A stretch of 60,330 nt of DNA from Vicinamibacterales bacterium (GTDB lineage Bacteria; Acidobacteriota; Vicinamibacteria; Vicinamibacterales; UBA2999), in contig DAIRVG010000018.1 in the NCBI GenBank assembly GCA_036802945.1, positions 1 to 60,330 on the forward strand. The letters run 5' to 3'. The position numbers and the translations under genes were made by a program. Under the pieces are notes generated by a model. That model did no database searches, was not told the DNA's origin, and saw only the letters and a list, made by a program, of their open reading frames with translations. Each line of letters begins with the position of its first letter. The stretch's first letter is position 1. Below are positions 3,013-60,330 of this stretch, piece by piece.

Positions 3013-3636
3013 ATGACTGTTCGACATGTATGTGGCGCAGTGATGGCTGTTGTGTTGACGTGTGGTGCGCCCACTGTTGCCCGCGCGCAGATACTACCGC
3101 CGGAGGAAAGCGGCATGGTTACCGTCGCGGGATGTTTGCAGCTCCGCGACGCGGACCACAAAGACCAGTACATTCTGGCGAACCCGGTCCCTGGTCCGAT
3201 CGACAGCGTGCCAGACGGGAGATGTAGCGCCACGATCGACCAACGAGCGTTCGACCTGGACAAGACCCACAAAGTAGGCATGAGCGACGCGCTGCTCGGC
3301 CACTGGGTCGAAATCAATGGAAGACTCGAGAAGGAAACGCACGACCGCTTGGACAATCTTCGTGAACTGAGCGCCTTGTCCTTCAGAGTGGTGCCGGTCG
3401 TTCCTCCACCAGTCGAAGTCGCCGTCGTCGAGCGGATAGCTCCTCCCGAAATTCAGCAGACGCCCACGCCCAGGGTGGAGACGCGGCAGGAGGAGACACC
3501 GGTCGCCACAACAGGAACCCTTCCGGAGACGCTGCCCAAGACAGCGAGCCCGCTTCAGGGAATCGGACTGCTCGGGCTGTTTGGACTCGCGGGAGGTCTT
3601 GCTCTTCGTGTCAACCGGCTCCACGAACGTGGGTGA
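3013..3636 (+). CDS. Exported protein with C-terminal LPXTG-like (LPKTA) sorting signal
   Basis: GAGGAG RBS before ATG 3013; signal peptide ending ARA-Q; VTVAGCL domain; Pro/Thr/Glu linker; LPKTASPLQGIGLLGLFGLAGGLALR plus a basic tail. Confidence 0.8.
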   Translation: MTVRHVCGAVMAVVLTCGAPTVARAQILPPEESGMVTVAGCLQLRDADHKDQYILANPVPGPIDSVPDGRCSATIDQRAFDLDKTHKVGMSDALLGHWVEINGRLEKETHDRLDNLRELSALSFRVVPVVPPPVEVAVVERIAPPEIQQTPTPRVETRQEETPVATTGTLPETLPKTASPLQGIGLLGLFGLAGGLALRVNRLHERG

Positions 3637-3676: not shown

Positions 3677-3815
3677 ATGAACTGGCTGTTTCAATTGCAC
3701 AAAGACGCTGCCGACCGCTCAGGCGGTCGGCGTCCTTGCAATAGTGACCGCCGTTGGAATCGCCCTCGGACCCTTCAGCGTCCGCGGTATCAGACTGGGT
3801 TCGGCGGGCGGGTAG
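3677..3815 (+). pseudogene. 5' remnant of a YidE/YbjL (AspT-family) transporter gene with a frameshift and early stop
   Basis: GAGGT RBS and ATG 3677. Removing one A from the AAA at 3701-3703 gives MNWLFQLHKTLPTAQAVGVLAIVTAVGIALGPFSVRGIRLGSAGG*. From memory this resembles the YidE/YbjL N-terminus (..G..LG.AGVLF); not database-checked. Confidence 0.6.
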
Positions 3816-4012
3816 CCTGGAGCATCAGGATCGCGCAGCTATGTCGGAGCTGAGGGAGCGACACCGAGCGCCTCTGCTCTTACCCAGTTCATCGAAGCCC
3901 ATCTCGCCCGTCCGACGAGACGGGATGTTGTGAGCACTCACGGTTCGCTGTCACTCCTGATTTCGAATCGGTCCGAATTCGACCGCCTGCCTCATTTCTG
4001 ACGACGGCGCAC

Positions 4013-15193: not shown

Positions 15194-15221
15194 GGGATCG
15201 GGGATCAGAGATCGGGGATCC
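15194..15221. repeat. Period-7 tandem repeat (GGGATCG-like x4)
   Basis: gggatcg gggatca gagatcg gggatcc. Confidence 0.75.
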
Positions 15222-15234
15222 GGGTTATTCCCTT

Positions 15235-30003: not shown

Positions 30004-30086
30004 ATTAGCGATTCGCGATTGGTGTTCGCCTCGGCGCCGTTGAAAATCACGAGTCAGGAATCACCAATCACCAATCACCAATCACA
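30004..30086. repeat. Period-7 AATCACC repeat with a complementary left arm
   Basis: attagcg attcgcg attggtg ... aatcacg agtcagg aatcacc x3 aatcaca, ending at the ATG at 30087. Confidence 0.8.
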
Positions 30087-32270: not shown

Positions 32271-32362
32271 AACTCCCAAGCGCCAACTCCCAACTCCCAA
32301 GGAGTTTACGTGGGAAGAATCGCCTTGGGAGTTGGAAGTTGGGCGTTGGGCGTTGGGCGTTG
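32271..32362. repeat. Period-7 CTCCCAA/TTGGGAG inverted-arm repeat between convergent genes
   Basis: aactcccaag cgccaactcc caactcccaa ... ttgggag ttggaag ttgggcg ttgggcg ttgggcg. Confidence 0.88.
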
Positions 32363-44727: not shown

Positions 44728-44763
44728 TTGGATTTGGGATTTGGGATTTGGGTTTTGGGATTT
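44728..44763 (+). repeat. Period-7 GGGATTT repeat with four G3 runs
   Basis: GGG-ATTT-GGG-ATTT-GGG-TTTT-GGG at 44736-44759. Confidence 0.85.
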
Positions 44764-53723: not shown

Positions 53724-54899
53724 GACGCGCGCAGCCGTTGTGCTGGCCAGCGCGACCACCTTGTCCGCGGCTTCACCCATCGAATCGGCCGTCGTGAAAT
53801 TGAGGCCGCTTTCCCGCAGCATGCGCTTGCCTTCCTCCACGTTGGTGCCTTCCATGCGGATGACAATCGGCACGGGCACGCCCAGCTGTTTTACCGCGGC
53901 GATGACGCCCTGGGCGAGCACGTCGCAGCGCAGGATGCCACCGAAGATGTTGATGAGGACCGCCTTCACGTGCTTGTCGGCCATCAGGATCCGGAACGCG
54001 TTCTTGATCTGCTCCGCATTGGCACCGCCGCCCACGTCGAGGAAATTCGCCGGCTCGCCGCCCGCCAGCTTGATGATGTCCATCGTCGCCATCGCGAGTC
54101 CGGCGCCATTGACCATGCAGCCGATGTTGCCGTCCAGGCGGATGTAGTTGAGCGAGAACTTGGACGCTTCGACCTCGAGCGGATCCTCTTCGCTGAGATC
54201 GCGGAGCTCGCGCAGGTCCGGGTGCCGATAGAGCGCGTTGTCGTCGAGGGTGACCTTGGCGTCAAGGGCCAGGAGATCCCCGCCCTTGGTGAGGATCAGC
54301 GGATTGATTTCAATCATCGACGCATCAGTCTCGATGAACGCCTTGTAGATGGCGTCGAGCACGTTGACCATCTTCCCCGCCGGTCCCGACTCGAGCCCCA
54401 TCGCGAACGCAAGCTTGCGCGCCTGAAACGGAATGACGCCGGTCGCCGGGTCCACATGCTCGCGCAGGATCTTCTCGGGGTGGGTCGCGGCGACTTCTTC
54501 GATGTCCATGCCGCCGGCCGCGCTGGCGATGATCACGGGCCGACCGGCGGCGCGATCAAGCAGCATGCTCAGGTAGAGCTCGCGCTCGATTTGCAGGCCT
54601 TCTTCGATCAGCACGCGGCCGACGATGCGACCTTCGGGGCCCGTCTGGTGCGTAATGAGCGTCATGCCGATCATCTGCTTCGCGAGCCGCTCCGCTTCGT
54701 CGGGCGACTTGGCGAGCTTGACGCCGCCGCCCTTGCCGCGGCCGCCGGCGTGAATCTGCGCCTTGACGACAACGACACTCCCTCCGAGCCGCTGCGCGAT
54801 GGCCGCGGCGTCCAGCGAATTGGACGTGACTTCCCCGCGCGGAACGGGCACGCCGAACCGTGCGAGGATCGACTTGGCTTGATATTCGTGGATTTTCAA
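53721..54899 (-). CDS. sucC: Succinyl-CoA synthetase beta subunit
   Basis: [48 protein letters not shown] start at 54899. Confidence 0.98.
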
Positions 54900-54960: not shown

Positions 54961-54990
54961 ATGTTATTCGGACCGGCGCTGAAGCGTCAA
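54961..54990 (-). promoter_or_regulatory. Candidate sigma70 promoter for the sucC run
   Basis: TTGACG-N18-TAACAT, about 60 nt upstream of sucC. Confidence 0.4.
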
Positions 54991-55025: not shown

Positions 55026-55055
55026 TCCCAACTCCCGGCGCGTTGGGAGTTGGGA
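55026..55055. terminator. Hairpin downstream of paralog 1 (CTCCCAA family)
   Basis: TCCCAACTCCC-8 nt-GGGAGTTGGGA, perfect 11-bp stem; no U-tract. Confidence 0.5.
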
Positions 55056-55080
55056 CTTTGGGATGTGCCTGACAGCGAAC

Positions 55081-55467
55081 CTACTGGTAGAGAAACTTAT
55101 GGCCGGTTAAGCTCCCCAGTTCGTACCACGTTGTAATGGGCGGCGGCTCGTTCGCCGGCGCCTCACCAAACGTGATCATCGCGGTCCTTGGCAGGTTCCT
55201 CGGCCGCTCGATCGGGTTGGTCAACCCCCGATAGAACAGCTTCGTACGATCCGCATTCCGTACCTCGATGACGTCGAGCGTCGAGTGGCTGTCCATCACG
55301 TCGAATGAATACGTCCCCGCAGGCAGCAAGACACCCGGGAGCGACACCGCCCTGCTGAACGTGAGCCTGTTCTCGTGACCGAAGGCCCACACGTGGCTCG
55401 ACGCCGCCACGACGAGGCCGAGCACCAGCATGCCGCACGCAACCCGCACCGACTTCCAATTCATCAT
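55081..55467 (-). CDS. Small exported protein, tandem paralog 1
   Basis: Signal peptide; HENRLTFSRAVSLPGVLLPAGTYSF...WYELG...GHKFLYQ; AAGGAG RBS. Confidence 0.88.
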   Translation of the reverse strand: MMNWKSVRVACGMLVLGLVVAASSHVWAFGHENRLTFSRAVSLPGVLLPAGTYSFDVMDSHSTLDVIEVRNADRTKLFYRGLTNPIERPRNLPRTAMITFGEAPANEPPPITTWYELGSLTGHKFLYQ

Positions 55468-55490
55468 TTCCGTATCTCCTTGCCCTTAAC

Positions 55491-55516
55491 AACGCTTCGT
55501 AGGACGGACTCTTACA
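55491..55516 (-). promoter_or_regulatory. Candidate ECF-sigma promoter, copy 1
   Basis: TGTAAG-N16-CGTT(GTT). Confidence 0.65.
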
Positions 55517-55563
55517 GGTGGGGTGACGCTGCGGCGCTGACTACGGCGAAATGACCACGGCTC

Positions 55564-55588
55564 CCAGCTCCCACGTGATGGGAGTTGG
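55564..55588. terminator. Hairpin downstream of paralog 2 (CTCCCA family)
   Basis: CCAGCTCCCA-CGTGA-TGGGAGTTGG. Confidence 0.45.
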
Positions 55589-55617
55589 AAGCTTGGTCGT
55601 TGAAGAGTCGAGCGCTG

Positions 55618-56004
55618 TTACCGATAGAGAAACTGGTGGCCGAGTGAGTCGCCGATCTCGTACCACGCTGCGATCGGCGGCGGCTCGTTCGCCGACGTTT
55701 CACCAAAGACAACCGCCGTCGTCTTCGACATACCCGCCGGGCGCTGCACCGTGTTGGTGAACCCCATGTAGTACACCTTCGAGCGGGCCTTGTCCCGCAC
55801 GAGCACGATATCGAGCGACGACGTCGACCCAGCCAATTCGAACGTGTAGGACCCCGCGGGCAGTACGACGCCCGGGAGCGCGACCGGCCGGCTGAACGTC
55901 AGGTTGTTCTCGTGGCTCACACCCCAGGCGTGGCCCGACGCGACCACAAGAAGACCGAGCGCCACTGTTCCGCAGGCTATCCGCACCGTTTTCCAATTCG
56001 TCAT
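55618..56004 (-). CDS. Small exported protein, tandem paralog 2
   Basis: HENNLTFSRPVALPGVVLPAGSYTF...WYEIGDSLGHQFLYR; AAGGAGG RBS. Confidence 0.88.
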   Translation of the reverse strand: MTNWKTVRIACGTVALGLLVVASGHAWGVSHENNLTFSRPVALPGVVLPAGSYTFELAGSTSSLDIVLVRDKARSKVYYMGFTNTVQRPAGMSKTTAVVFGETSANEPPPIAAWYEIGDSLGHQFLYR

Positions 56005-56028
56005 CTCCGTATCCTCCTTGCCCCTAAC

Positions 56029-56054
56029 AACGTCGGCGGAGTGTCGGTCTTACG
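56029..56054 (-). promoter_or_regulatory. Candidate ECF-sigma promoter, copy 2
   Basis: CGTAAG-N16-CGTT(GTT); spacer sequence diverged but length kept. Confidence 0.65.
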
Positions 56055-56199
56055 GGCGAAGTGAGCACGACGGGGACTGCAGAGCCGGACGTTGCACCGG
56101 CCGCCGGGCTGCGAATGTGTCAACCACGAACGTCACGAAGCGTACGAAGCAGTGAATTGCTTCGTGCGCTTCGGATCTTCGTGGTTCAAGTTTGGAGAC

Positions 56200-56304
56200 G
56201 TAGAGGCGGGTCTCTAGACGGCGACGTAGAGGCGGGGTCTCTAGACGGCGACGTAGAGGCGGGTCTTTAGACGGCGACGTAGAGGCGGGTCTTTAGACCC
56301 GCCT
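56200..56304 (+). repeat. Four tandem copies (26,27,26,26 nt) of a GTAG-type REP
   Basis: GTAGAGGCGGGTCTYTAGACGGCGAC x3, then the complete palindrome GTAG-AGGCGGGTCT-TT-AGACCCGCCT; no spacers. Confidence 0.9.
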
Positions 56305-56315
56305 ATGCGTTGGAG

Positions 56316-56699
56316 CTACTGGTAGAGAAACTGGTGGCCGATTGAGTCACCGATTTCGTACCACGTTGCGATCGGCCGCACCTCATTTGCGCGCGCTTCG
56401 GCAAAGGTCACCGGCGTGTCCTTCGACATCCCCTTCGGGCGCTGAACGAGATTCGTGAACCCCATGTAGAACACCTTCGTGCGCGCGCGGTTGCGCACGA
56501 TCACCACGTCCATCGACGACTTCGAGTCCACCAGATCGAACGAGTACGCTCCAGCAGGCAGCACGACGCCCGGGAGCGCCACCGGTCTGCTGAACGTCAG
56601 CTGGTTCTCGTGGTTGACGAACGCGTGGCCCGATCCGGTCATGAGCAGAGCCAGCGCCGCAGCTCCCAGTGCAATCCGCACCAACTTTGAATACTTCAT
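56316..56699 (-). CDS. Small exported protein, tandem paralog 3
   Basis: HENQLTFSRPVALPGVVLPAGAYSF...WYEIGDSIGHQFLYQ. GGAGG spacing favours ATG 56699 over 56705. Confidence 0.88.
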   Translation of the reverse strand: MKYSKLVRIALGAAALALLMTGSGHAFVNHENQLTFSRPVALPGVVLPAGAYSFDLVDSKSSMDVVIVRNRARTKVFYMGFTNLVQRPKGMSKDTPVTFAEARANEVRPIATWYEIGDSIGHQFLYQ

Positions 56700-56722
56700 A
56701 TCCATTCCTCCCTGCCTTGAAC

Positions 56723-56748
56723 AACGTTGCGTAGGACGGATTCGTACA
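56723..56748 (-). promoter_or_regulatory. Candidate ECF-sigma promoter, copy 3
   Basis: TGTACG-N16-CGTT(GTT). Confidence 0.65.
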
Positions 56749-56792: not shown

Positions 56793-59700
56793 ATGACCGA
56801 CCCGTTAGTCGGCACTGCAGTTGCCCATTACGAGGTACTAGCAAAGCTCGGTGGCGGCGGCATGGGTGTCGTCTACACCGCGCGCGACGTCCGCCTCGGG
56901 CGACTTGTCGCGCTCAAGTTCCTCCCGCCACAGTGGAGCCACGACGAGAGCGCGAAGCAGCGTTTTCTTCGCGAGGCTCAAGCCGCTTCGGCGACCCACC
57001 ATCGCAACATCTGCACGATTCATGACATCGAGACCGCGGCCGACGGCCAGTTGTTCATCGTCATGGCGTACTACGAAGGCCAGACGCTGAAGCAGAAGCT
57101 CGAAGCTGGCCCACTACCGATCGAAGAAGCCGTGGAGATCGCCGCGCAGGTCGCGGAAGGTCTCGCCAAAGCGCACGCGGAAGGCGTGGTCCATCGCGAC
57201 ATCAAACCGGGCAACCTGATCATCGTCGAGGACGACGTCAAGATCCTCGACTTCGGCCTGGCAAAGTTCGCGAACGCGCTGCAGCTCACGATGGAGGGCT
57301 CGACGCTGGGAACGGTGGCTTACATGTCGCCCGAGCAGACGCGCGGGGAGGAGGCGGACGCGCGAAGCGACATCTGGGCAGTGGGCGTCGTGCTCTACGA
57401 GATGCTCGCTGGCGCGCTGCCGTTCAAAGGCGCCTATCCCGAAGCGATTTCTCACGCAATCCGCAACGATCCCATGCCGCCGATGCGCACTCCCGGGCGC
57501 GACATTCCTCCAGAACTGACTCGGATCATCGAGCGCGCGCTCGCAAAGGATCCGGAGGAGCGCTTTCAAAGTGTGCGGGAGCTAGCGCGCGATCTCCGGC
57601 TGCTGCAAGGCCGCACCATCCCGCTTGACCTGCTCACGGCGCCCATTAATGCGCCCGCGTTGCGGATCACGCCGCCGCGACGATGGTGGCGATCGCGTGC
57701 GGCGCTTGTGACCGCGGGGCTCCTGATCGGCGCAGGCATCGGTGTGCCGCTCTGGATCTTCGCGCCCGTCGCGCGTGTGCCGGTCGTAGTCGCTCCCGTC
57801 GTCAATCAGACCGGCTACCCGGAGCTCGACACCTACCGTGCGGCATTGACCGCAGAATTGATCGCGGAGCTGTCAGGTTCAGCAGTGGTGCGTCCGGTTC
57901 CGTACGATCGAGAGCTCCAGATTCTTCGCCGGTTCAGGGACGGCGGGGAGGATATTTCGAGTCGCGAGGCAATCCAGGCCCTCACGGTCAATACCGGTGC
58001 GCGGATCGTCATTGCGCCGACGCTCCTGTATGAGAACGGGGCGTGGCGAGCGCGCGGTGAGTTCCGCGAGGCGGCAACCGCAACCAATGCGGCGGTGCGG
58101 GAGACCGCCCCCGTCGTGTCGTCGCTGGTCAAGGAGACTGCCTACCGACTGATGCCGCAGCTGACGGCGGGCATCGAGGAGCATTTCCTTGCGACGGGCA
58201 CACGTCGGGCGCGCATCGCCTATTTCCTGCGGGCACTGATTGGCCGGACTCCTCCGGCGCCGGCCGTTCGAATGGGCACTCTTGATGCGGCCGCCGAGTT
58301 CGAGCGGGGACTCGACGCGTACGAACGGCTCGAGTACGGCACCGCATTGCGGTTCTTCACCAGTGCCGCGGCACTCGATTCGCGAAATCCCTTGCCCATC
58401 GCATGGCGTAGCCGGGTCGCTCACATCATGCGCCGCGATGACGAGGCCGCCGACGCGGCGCAGCAGGCGGGTCGCCTGATGGCTGCGAAGCTGTCCGCCT
58501 CGGATCGGACGTTCCTCGAAGCCGTGCTTGCGGAGTCACAAGGCGATACGGCGACCGCGGACGCGCGATATCACCAGTTGGCTCAAGACGTTCCCGATGA
58601 GGTGCGATGGGCAATCGAGCTTGGCGCATTTCAGGATCGGCGGAATCTCAACGCCGACAGCGTGGCGAGCTACCAGCACGCGCTCTCGCTTGACCCGCGG
58701 TTGATCAGGCCGCACCTCGAGCTCTGCCGCCTGTACAACCGCCTCAACGAGACCGCCGATGCGAAAACCCAAGGACAACAGGCGCTCGCCCAATATCGCG
58801 CGATCGCCGATCGCGCGGGCGAGGTGCAGTCGTTGTTCTGTCTCACCGACGCCTTCCGTGTTGGCGACGACGCGGACCATAAGGAGGCGCGTCGGCTGGC
58901 TGACGCCGCGCTCATGCTGGTGCAAAACAACCCCGAGTCGTTCCAGCTGCCGCGCGCCCATTACTACGTCGGCAACGCCGCGTACGTGGGGGGACAGCTC
59001 TCAGAAGCGATCGCGTCATGGCAGGAATCAGTGACCCGCGCCCGTGCCGTCGACAACCGCCCCATCCAACCACTCGACTTGATGAACATGGGAGTGACCT
59101 ACGAAAGGCTCGGACAGCGGGCGCTCGCGGCGAGCCACTTCGCCGAGAGTTCGAAGGCGTATGAACGCCTCGGAGACGAGGCGCGTGCCGCGCAGACCCA
59201 GGCCAATAGCGGCGCACTCCTGGTCGAATACGGTGACAAACCGCAAGAAGGCCTGCGCGATCTTGAAAACGCCCTGGCAGTCTCGCGCAAACTGGGGGAC
59301 AAGAACTTCGAGGCATTTTGCCTGCAGGTCATTGCAGCCTATTACCGGTATGCCGGTCGCCATGCTGAAGCCGAGCGGACTTTCAATCAAGCGATCGCGA
59401 TTTCCAGGGAACGGGACCTCCAGGACGACATCGCGCTGCTCACGATTGACGTGGCGCGTTCGCGCTTCGATCGCGCAGACTATGCGAGCGCGAGGGATCT
59501 GTTCGTGCAGGCCATGGGGGATGGATCGGGCCCGCGAACGACCGATGCACGGATCCGCCTCGCCCGCGTCGACGTCCGGCTTGGGGACTTCCACGCCGCC
59601 ACGCAGGAGCTCAAGACCGCCGAAACCGAATTCGCCGCAGGACATGGGGATCGCAACCTCGCGCCGCTACTCGAGGTCGTTCGTGGTGAGCTGGCGCTCG

Positions 59701-60197
59701 CGTCAGGCGCCGCTCAGGATTCACGCGCGTATTTCGAGAGAGGGGCAGCAGTGTGGGTCGACGATCGACCCGACGCCGCGGCTGTTGAGGCCCGCGCCTA
59801 TCTTGGCCTGCTCGACACGCGCCAGGGCCGGACGTCGTCTGCGCGACAGGCACTGGAGTCGAGCCTCATACAGGCCGGCAGAATGGGCCGCTACGGGCTG
59901 GAGGTCCGCTGCCGCGTGTATCTCGCCCAGCTCGATGTCTCACAACGACAGTTCGCTGCCGCCGCCGATCGGCTCCGCAACATTCCGGCCGATGGCGAGC
60001 GCGCGCTTGGCCCCGAGTTGCAGGCCCAGGTTCACTATTTGCGCAGCCAGGCGCTCAAGGGAATGGGCGAGGTCGCGGGAAGCAAACGGGATGAAGAGGC
60101 GGCGCGACGATTTCTTCGAGATCTCACGACCTCCTTGCCGGAGAAGTACCGCGCGGGCTTCGCGGCGCGGGCGGACCTGCTCGTGCCCGCCATCTGA
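56793..60197 (+). CDS. Hanks-type Ser/Thr protein kinase with TM helix, TolB-N-like domain and extracytoplasmic TPR array
   Basis: LGGGGMGVVY, VALKFL, HRDIKPGN, DFGLAK, YMSPEQ, SDIWAVG; one TM helix; helical repeats to the C-terminus. Start trimmed to ATG 56793. Confidence 0.95.
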   Translation: MTDPLVGTAVAHYEVLAKLGGGGMGVVYTARDVRLGRLVALKFLPPQWSHDESAKQRFLREAQAASATHHRNICTIHDIETAADGQLFIVMAYYEGQTLKQKLEAGPLPIEEAVEIAAQVAEGLAKAHAEGVVHRDIKPGNLIIVEDDVKILDFGLAKFANALQLTMEGSTLGTVAYMSPEQTRGEEADARSDIWAVGVVLYEMLAGALPFKGAYPEAISHAIRNDPMPPMRTPGRDIPPELTRIIERALAKDPEERFQSVRELARDLRLLQGRTIPLDLLTAPINAPALRITPPRRWWRSRAALVTAGLLIGAGIGVPLWIFAPVARVPVVVAPVVNQTGYPELDTYRAALTAELIAELSGSAVVRPVPYDRELQILRRFRDGGEDISSREAIQALTVNTGARIVIAPTLLYENGAWRARGEFREAATATNAAVRETAPVVSSLVKETAYRLMPQLTAGIEEHFLATGTRRARIAYFLRALIGRTPPAPAVRMGTLDAAAEFERGLDAYERLEYGTALRFFTSAAALDSRNPLPIAWRSRVAHIMRRDDEAADAAQQAGRLMAAKLSASDRTFLEAVLAESQGDTATADARYHQLAQDVPDEVRWAIELGAFQDRRNLNADSVASYQHALSLDPRLIRPHLELCRLYNRLNETADAKTQGQQALAQYRAIADRAGEVQSLFCLTDAFRVGDDADHKEARRLADAALMLVQNNPESFQLPRAHYYVGNAAYVGGQLSEAIASWQESVTRARAVDNRPIQPLDLMNMGVTYERLGQRALAASHFAESSKAYERLGDEARAAQTQANSGALLVEYGDKPQEGLRDLENALAVSRKLGDKNFEAFCLQVIAAYYRYAGRHAEAERTFNQAIAISRERDLQDDIALLTIDVARSRFDRADYASARDLFVQAMGDGSGPRTTDARIRLARVDVRLGDFHAATQELKTAETEFAAGHGDRNLAPLLEVVRGELALASGAAQDSRAYFERGAAVWVDDRPDAAAVEARAYLGLLDTRQGRTSSARQALESSLIQAGRMGRYGLEVRCRVYLAQLDVSQRQFAAAADRLRNIPADGERALGPELQAQVHYLRSQALKGMGEVAGSKRDEEAARRFLRDLTTSLPEKYRAGFAARADLLVPAI

Positions 60198-60280: not shown

Positions 60281-60330
60281 ATGGGATACGGAGAAATCGG
60301 CGGCGGTGGAAGCGTTAAATGGCTGGTGGT
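60281..60330 (+). CDS. Start of a downstream gene (partial, cut by window edge)
   Basis: GGAGG-N5-ATG; MGYGEIGGGGSVKWLV... Confidence 0.55.
   Translation, partial: MGYGEIGGGGSVKWLV

Follow-up and report, generated by a model that had tools for sequence, protein, structure and literature searches.

Three tandem genes for small, predicted exported proteins as the probable output of an extracytoplasmic function sigma factor and Ser/Thr kinase module in a Vicinamibacterales-like acidobacterium

A 60,330-nt stretch of a Vicinamibacterales genome (contig DAIRVG010000018.1 of assembly GCA_036802945.1, hereafter the window) carries near its end three tandem paralogous genes for small proteins with signal-peptide-like N-termini, each preceded by a bipartite sequence that we predict to be a promoter of an extracytoplasmic function (ECF) sigma factor. 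When the window is compared with related loci on other contigs (numbered L001 and upwards), the array is probably the output end of an ECF sigma/Ser-Thr kinase signalling module in a Vicinamibacterales-like acidobacterium. An earlier note on this DNA had proposed a co-regulated array with a selected ECF-type promoter for each paralog, and this proposal is supported by the boxes found in relatives, by the sigma and kinase genes that neighbour the array, and by the presence of the same motif upstream of the sigma gene, all of which is evidence from sequence comparison. The window-wide scans for the motif, the repeats, Rfam families and sigma factors described below cover these 60 kb.

The bipartite promoter motif

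The sequence YGTAMG-N16-CGTTGTT, which the earlier note had placed upstream of each paralog, matches the window exactly three times, always on the (-) strand, and has no match in 100 dinucleotide-preserving shuffles, with zero matches expected by chance. The end of CGTT lies 23, 24 and 23 nt from the ATG of copies 1, 2 and 3, respectively, as had been claimed, the figure for copy 3 being valid only if the second ATG (56699) is the start codon. This second ATG is the better start because the Shine-Dalgarno (SD) sequence GGGAGGA abuts the first ATG, whereas the second stands at a proper distance from it. In each unit the predicted leader is about 16–18 nt long and contains a strong SD sequence. 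When the three upstream regions are aligned, they resemble one another between the -35 box and the ATG; the similarity ends abruptly at the -35 box, with none beyond. Most of the spacer is common to copies 1 and 3. The 16-nt spacer of copy 2 is unrelated, while both of its boxes and their spacing are intact, which agrees with the earlier description.

A weight matrix built only from relatives' sequences with under 80% identity to the promoters of the window itself gave 25.6 bits for copy 3 and 21.6 bits for copy 1, the best and second best scores in the window, against a shuffle maximum of 17.7 bits. The promoters of copies 3 and 1 are thus the two top sites in 120 kb (both strands of the window). 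The same scan revealed no further regulon member in the window, as no other site exceeded the shuffle maximum. A sigma-70 promoter scan found no sigma-70-like promoter upstream of the three genes, and an Rfam scan of the whole window gave no match.

The motif is present at orthologous loci, the absence of which had been named as a possible refutation. In 100 distinct upstream regions of family genes, derived from 96 fetched loci, GT[ACT][AC]G-N16-CGTT occurs 80 times, and most of the others have near variants such as GTCGG or GTGTG. CGTT is found 19–34 nt before the ATG in 120 of the 120 upstream regions with a locatable start codon (the anchored regions). In a profile of 86 distinct sequences anchored on CGTT, in which near-duplicates were down-weighted to an effective number of about 40, the information is near zero upstream of position -22 and sets in abruptly at T(0.68) G(0.93) T(0.95) n n G(0.95) a; the -10 side reads CGTT G(0.81) [T/A] T(0.84). 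The family consensus is TGTnnGa, 16 nt, CGTTGwT, with a -35 box of T-G-T-[A/C]-[C/A]-G-a. A third conserved element, CCTAC or CCTCC, stands in the family-gene spacer; counted from the C of CGTT, it has C at -8 (0.96), either C or T at -7, and C at -5 (0.90). Both the sigma-gene promoters and copy 2 of the window lack it.

The spacers are unrelated in several lineages while the boxes and the 16-nt spacing stay. Second-copy paralogs with only 36–49% protein identity retain TGTCCG-N16-CGTTAAC. The orthologous copy 2 in L020 retains the ancestral GTCCTACG spacer, and the spacer of copy 2 in the window is therefore a lineage-specific replacement. These findings are in agreement with the idea of a selected bipartite promoter rather than a leftover of duplication: the boxes are kept across divergent Acidobacteriota contigs, spacers have been replaced, and there is no conservation 5' of the -35 box.

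Canonical ECF promoters combine a -35 AAC, a spacer of 16–17 nt and a -10 CGT, as in the EcfG promoter GGAAC-N16-CGTT (PMC8103513). The present motif resembles them in its CGTT, which occurs in the three window copies and in all anchored regions, in its spacer, which is 16 nt in every copy even where its sequence is unrelated (copy 2, L002, L007, L009 and L045), in the closeness of the gene and in the occurrence of the motif at a sigma gene. It differs in its -35 box, which is TGTnnGa and not GGAAC or AAC, and in the third element within the spacer of the family-gene promoters.

The sigma factor and the kinases next to the array

Over 8.1 kb, as far as the last base of the window, contig L011 shows 99.5% identity to the window, and collinearity with L011 places a sigma gene 1.7–2.4 kb past the window end. 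A tblastn search of the window with the sigma sequence (E ≤ 1) found no sigma gene, and the sigma-size open reading frames (ORFs) of the window were ruled out as candidates, being a pentapeptide-repeat protein, a 2Fe-2S protein, GreA and others. The gene order in L011, L013 and L014 is mdh, ECF sigma, soluble kinase, two small genes, a gene for a 1,134-aa protein with a kinase domain and tetratricopeptide repeats (kinase-TPR), the three paralogs, sucC, sucD and ndk. This is one of two recurring architectures (sigma, kinase, two small genes, kinase-TPR, family genes). The other is simpler (sigma, kinase, family gene): in more distant relatives (L003–L006 and others) the family gene directly follows a gene for a 287–293-aa Hanks-type kinase, from which the ECF sigma gene diverges. 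At loci of the L003–L006 type the stop codon of the kinase gene is the TAA within the -35 box GTAAG. The sigma gene was found in 18 loci, that is, wherever the flank sufficed in the close subfamily, and about nine more contigs end inside the kinase genes.

The sigma factor is a protein of 199–209 aa that consists of Sigma70_r2 and Sigma70_r4_2 domains. It scores 70.7–81.8 bits against TIGR02937 (sigma70-ECF; cut-off 42.9), which places it among the ECF (group 4) factors, and its best NCBIfam subfamily is the Planctomycete-type TIGR02984, below the cut-off of that model. Between the sigma and kinase genes, upstream of the former and in its orientation, we found TGTTCG-N16-CGTTAT with at least seven different spacers (L003/57, L004/60/78/81, L005/96, L011/13/14, L024, L028, L039, L054 and L064). 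By a rough estimate from base composition, the chance of such a match in a 120-nt region is about 0.006. At every locus where the sigma gene and sufficient flank are available, the 287–293-aa kinase gene is oriented divergently from that sigma gene. In the kinase, the GxGGMG, VALK, HRDIKP, DFG and APE motifs are intact and there is no transmembrane segment; no anti-sigma gene was seen beside the sigma gene. Region 2.2 of the sigma factor, LDTGDLVQ(E/D), is invariant in 17 sigma sequences from 17 lineages and aligns with DVPDVVQE, which we take to be the corresponding motif of E. coli RpoE.

We propose that each paralog is a separate unit composed of promoter, short leader, gene and stem-loop. 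The three promoters would be served by the ECF sigma factor whose gene, found beside the family in relatives, lies 1.7 kb past the end of the window. We assign them to this factor because ECF sigmas usually autoregulate and adjoin their regulators and targets, properties that are the accepted basis for promoter assignment; they also typically recognise a CGT -10 box (PMC8103513, PMC7826278). As the same bipartite motif is found upstream of its own gene, the sigma factor probably amplifies its own expression. Since no anti-sigma gene was seen, the adjacent soluble Hanks kinase most likely governs the activity of the sigma factor, and several ECF groups are indeed paired with Ser/Thr kinases in place of anti-sigma factors (PMC7826278, PMC8999054). 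In the lineage of the window, a further input may come from the inserted membrane kinase-TPR protein. Once the sigma factor is active, the three genes would be switched on together and their products exported, to act, as we speculate, in the envelope.

The closest described parallels are the ECF43 pairs, EcfP-PknT of Vibrio parahaemolyticus and EcfK-PknS of Xanthomonas citri, in which the ECF sigma gene also stands beside a Hanks-type kinase gene, no anti-sigma factor is seen and targets are nearby (PMC8999054, PMC13147305). A co-encoded Hanks-type kinase without an anti-sigma factor is what we find here. In ECF43 factors, the acidic DAED/DxxD of region 2.2 is changed to the uncharged STTA/QTTA, and phosphorylation of Thr restores the charge (PMC8999054, PMC13147305), whereas the present sigma keeps DTGDLVQE (DxxDxxQE). 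Membership in ECF43 was rejected, as the acidic motif is retained in all 17 sigma sequences. Furthermore, PknS is a membrane receptor kinase, whereas the adjacent kinase here is soluble, and the ECF43 targets are type VI secretion system or polymyxin-resistance genes and not small, predicted exported proteins. The kinase-linked groups ECF59, 61, 62, 217, 267 and 283, which mostly lack anti-sigma factors, keep DAED-like motifs and are uncharacterised (PMC7826278, PMC8999054), resemble our case in the kinase link and the acidic motif, a comparison made here by their description. They are known mainly from Planctomycetes and Actinobacteria, whereas the present sigma is from Acidobacteriota.

The family of predicted exported proteins and the surrounding elements

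The three paralogous proteins are 54–69% identical to each other, and the motifs HEN.LTFSR.V.LPGV.LPAG.Y.F and WYE.G...GH.FLY, which the earlier note had read in them, are both present in all three (Table 1). The G+C content of third codon positions in the three ORFs (0.80–0.83) is typical of coding sequence and of the neighbouring genes. The ratio of nonsynonymous to synonymous substitutions (dN/dS) against orthologues in L001, L020 and L021, a noisy measure in such short genes, is 0.17–0.28 for copies 2 and 3, which indicates that they are under purifying selection. The same comparison, equally noisy, gives 0.36–0.87 for copy 1, the fastest-evolving and promoter-distal copy, and suggests relaxed or diversifying selection. 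The protein of paralog 3 has an identical match on 15 metagenome contigs, and tandem arrays of two or three family copies recur among relatives.

Table 1. Features at the paralog array and at the adjoining end of the window
Feature	Position	Strand	Remarks
Stem-loop after paralog 1	55026..55055	(-)	12-bp perfect stem, no U-tract
Paralog 1	55081..55467	(-)	128 aa, beta-rich small protein with signal-peptide-like N-terminus, unnamed family; orthologues in L001, L011–L016 and others
Predicted ECF-type promoter, paralog 1	55488..55516	(-)	TGTAAG-N16-CGTTGTT; expected start site near 55483–55485
Stem-loop after paralog 2	55560..55592	(-)	z = -4.0; homologous to the paralog 1 stem-loop
Paralog 2	55618..56004	(-)	128 aa, beta-rich small protein with signal-peptide-like N-terminus; AlphaFold2-modelled
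Predicted ECF-type promoter, paralog 2	56026..56054	(-)	CGTAAG-N16-CGTTGTT; spacer replaced, lineage-specific
Long imperfect palindrome between paralogs 3 and 2	56122..56186	(-)	stem of about 27 bp, z = -4.6
Tandem repeat	56197..56298	.	26-nt x 3.9, copies of one arm of the paralog 3 stem-loop
Stem-loop directly after paralog 3	56283..56304	(-)	9-bp G+C-rich stem
Paralog 3	56316..56699	(-)	127 aa from the second ATG; ORF reaches 56705 (129 aa)
Predicted ECF-type promoter, paralog 3	56720..56748	(-)	TGTACG-N16-CGTTGTT; within the 93-nt divergent region shared with the kinase-TPR gene
Receptor-type Hanks Ser/Thr kinase (kinase-TPR)	56793..60197	(+)	N-terminal kinase domain, one transmembrane helix (aa 302–320), TPR-rich outer region of about 810 aa
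Small gene cut by the window end	60282..60330	(+)	begins MGYGEIGGGGSV; followed in L011 by its paralog, the soluble kinase and the ECF sigma

By inspection, the N-terminus of the paralogs has a basic N-region, one hydrophobic stretch (residues 4–24) and a GHA/AXA-like site, and hence looks like a Sec signal peptide. In the AlphaFold2 model of paralog 2 this part is a lone helix of low confidence, and the mature domain of about 100 aa is all-beta with nine strands, the predicted local distance difference test score being 86–97 by 10-residue blocks, with a mean of about 93. At least 354 relatives were found in metagenomes with E ≤ 0.001; those with a name are all called “hypothetical”, and no Pfam domain is present in any of the relatives. 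An exhaustive profile search returned 2,672 clusters at 50% identity, and most of the 150 best listed are proteins of about 125–135 aa with a single domain. All genome matches belong to Acidobacteriota, and several are placed in Vicinamibacterales. The listed members mostly stand alone and end in F-x-Y-R/Q, and the LPKTA-type anchors or domain fusions that the earlier note had mentioned were not seen among them.

Searches of Pfam, NCBIfam, PDB folds and PDB sequences revealed no characterised family to which the paralogs belong, a match that would have spoken against the original idea. NCBIfam gave no match to the family proteins, a profile search of PDB sequences nothing below E 0.5, and Foldseek against the PDB only weak PH/EVH1-like resemblances, the best with E 0.64. 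The suggested likeness to DUF2911 (PF11138) did not rise above threshold. All three paralogs score 13.6–15.7 bits (E 0.014–0.06; gathering score 27) over the LPG..LPAG.Y.F hairpin, at profile positions of about 36–92 of 145, and the same weak match recurs in 6 of 97 distant relatives, where the best E is 0.003 and all scores are below the gathering score. The match spans roughly half of the domain. DUF2911 is, on this evidence, a weak lead and not a membership. DUF2911 itself has no known function and one incidental mention in the searchable literature.

The near-invariant residues of the wide family are mostly Gly, Pro and aromatic or hydrophobic residues, plus R88 and E102. No conserved residues that look catalytic are seen, which suggests that a binding or structural (or protective) role is more likely than an enzymatic one. 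By analogy only, the paralogs may be compared with CpxP, Spy and ZraP of E. coli, small exported stress-response proteins of the periplasm that envelope signalling induces strongly as its main output. Some of them feed back on the sensor. These E. coli proteins are alpha-helical and have no sequence or fold relation to the present family, which is predicted to be all-beta.

A hairpin or an array of repetitive extragenic palindromic (REP) sequences had been reported after each gene. A stable stem-loop does follow each of them, and a simple terminator scan found no canonical intrinsic terminator at the three hairpins. The REP array was rejected: the 26-nt repeat is local, not dispersed in the window, and its copy number differs between close contigs. 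Within the window, the unit occurs only at 56197–56311, and two other matches with three mismatches look like chance. The 17-nt core of the repeat is present in one exact copy in L013 and L018 versus three in L011, L012 and L014–L016, all of these contigs being 95–99% identical to the window.

On the other side of paralog 1, sucC on the (-) strand probably starts with the TTG at 54899 (MKIHEYQAK, as in L004 and L007) and not with the ATG at 54962. A sigma-70-like site, TTGACG-18-TAACAT, is located at 54990–54961, about 60 nt upstream of this TTG, and is the sole promoter-like site of the sigma-70 scan. From these predictions it is likely that sucCD-ndk have their own housekeeping promoter after the paralog 1 hairpin. 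In L004 (4473–5261, (-) strand) and L007 (4460–5362, (-) strand), a cytochrome c gene with a reaction-centre-type haem domain and TPR separates the family gene from sucC; the window has no such gene. Downstream of kinase-TPR, L011 encodes two paralogous small cytoplasmic proteins that start with MGYGEIGGGGSV(K/Y)W (3250–3621 and 3682–4008, (-) strand). They have no Pfam or NCBIfam match and might be substrates or partners of the kinase. Elsewhere in the window, four heptamer tandem repeats lie between or at the ends of predicted genes: GGGATCG x4.4 (15194–15224), AATCACC x3.9 (30059–30085), TTGGGCG x5.4 (32325–32362) and GGATTTG x4.9 (44730–44763).

Competing explanations and implications

Several points weigh against a sigma-kinase module with three ECF promoters as its output. 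Everything regulatory in it is drawn from comparison, and the promoter is a strong prediction. The AAC of ECF -35 boxes is missing, the window copies having GTAAG or GTACG. On the full weight matrix, the promoter of copy 2 reaches only 9.5 bits, below the shuffle maximum, its score being low because the conserved spacer element is absent. In L008–L010, L042, L056 and L091, the fetched flanks contain neither a sigma nor a kinase gene. The paralogs belong to no Pfam or NCBIfam family and match no PDB fold. Termination between the copies is not certain, as the hairpins lack U-tracts. Finally, the charge-restoring phosphorylation of ECF43 may not apply here because the sigma keeps DTGDLVQE (PMC13147305, PMC8999054).

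One could imagine that the promoters are of the ECF type but are read by another ECF sigma encoded elsewhere in the genome, the neighbouring sigma and kinase being linked to them by position only. The motif in L009 and L042, where the fetched flanks contain no sigma or kinase gene, would fit this, as would the TGTTCG box and the missing spacer element of the sigma-gene promoter, when the window's family promoters have TGTAAG or TGTACG. However, TGTTCG is also the -35 box of family genes in L007, L009, L025, L046, L086 and L089, the sigma gene is present in the close subfamily wherever the flank sufficed (18 loci), and a motif common to a sigma gene and the genes beside it is the usual criterion for assigning ECF promoters (PMC7826278). 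We therefore consider a distant sigma unlikely. That the conserved sequence is the operator of a conventional transcription factor, with the genes transcribed by the housekeeping sigma, appears distinctly improbable. The CCTAC/CCTCC element equals the boxes in conservation and is missing from the sigma-gene promoters, so that an additional protein-binding site may overlap the promoter, but there is no sigma-70-like -35/-10 pair upstream of the genes and no dyad symmetry. Instead, two short boxes are held at a fixed 16-nt distance from each other, with the intervening sequence free in several lineages, and at a fixed distance from the ATG, and the -10 is the ECF-typical CGTT.

The remaining alternatives deny a function to some or all of the motifs. 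If only the first promoter worked and the array were a read-through operon, perhaps extending into sucCD, the downstream motifs would be decaying remnants of duplication. The inter-gene hairpins without U-tracts, which the terminator scan did not pick up, and the loss of the spacer element from the copy 2 promoter are compatible with this. Nevertheless, all three promoters keep their boxes and spacing in strains with a gene dS of about 0.07–0.27, anciently diverged second copies in other lineages retain boxes of their own, and copies 1 and 2 are still followed by their homologous hairpins, for which reasons we give read-through little credence. A functionless, neutral residue of recent duplication is very improbable, as the comparative data already contradict it. 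The units are plainly duplicates of one another and most of the spacer is common to copies 1 and 3, yet the same boxes occur in genomes with only 36–67% protein identity, the conservation has a sharp 5' edge, spacers are replaced while boxes are kept, and the motif also stands upstream of the unrelated sigma gene. The explanation that we favour thus continues to be three ECF-type promoters served by the neighbouring sigma.

The third spacer element may call for an explanation of its own. CCTAC/CCTCC could be an anti-SD sequence or a terminator arm, with the promoter nested in a hairpin that insulates each paralog from read-through translation. Read-through RNA from the upstream kinase gene or paralog would then fold, hide the ribosome-binding site and perhaps terminate, and transcripts made with the ECF sigma, starting inside the loop, would be translated. 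Hiding of the ribosome-binding site was tested because CCTCC complements the SD sequence. Unfortunately, RNAalifold returned no consensus structure, cognate spacer-leader duplexes were only marginally better than non-cognate ones (-12.25 versus -11.41 kcal/mol; permutation p = 0.007), and the predicted SD accessibility in read-through RNA was 0.31 versus 0.37 in the shuffled-promoter control, which is not significant (p = 0.09). Hence, this explanation is not established for the window. In the second-copy subfamily, the spacer and leader of L003 (4394–4440) form a perfect 15-bp hairpin of -30 kcal/mol with CGTT in its loop; the hairpin begins about 12 nt past the upstream paralog's stop codon, and the same is seen in L030 near 966, L043 near 830 and L071 near 499. 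The predicted arrangement is clear-cut only in this subfamily and weak in the window's own copies, and as a general explanation of the element we regard it as rather unlikely.

In summary, a sigma-kinase module with the three paralogs as its output is of a kind already known, a kinase-linked ECF sigma with adjacent targets, and current understanding is not overturned by it. It offers a testable assignment of sigma, promoter and targets in Vicinamibacterales-type Acidobacteriota, abundant soil bacteria in which very few regulatory circuits have been studied. The sigma, with its acidic region 2.2 motif, is a candidate for control by a kinase in a way other than the charge-restoring phosphorylation of ECF43, a question that reviews flag as open, and the TGTnnGa-N16-CGTTGwT promoter could possibly serve as an orthogonal part for synthetic circuits. 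For the family itself, the comparison suggests that a large, unnamed group of small, predicted exported proteins may be the dedicated output of a kinase-linked ECF sigma.

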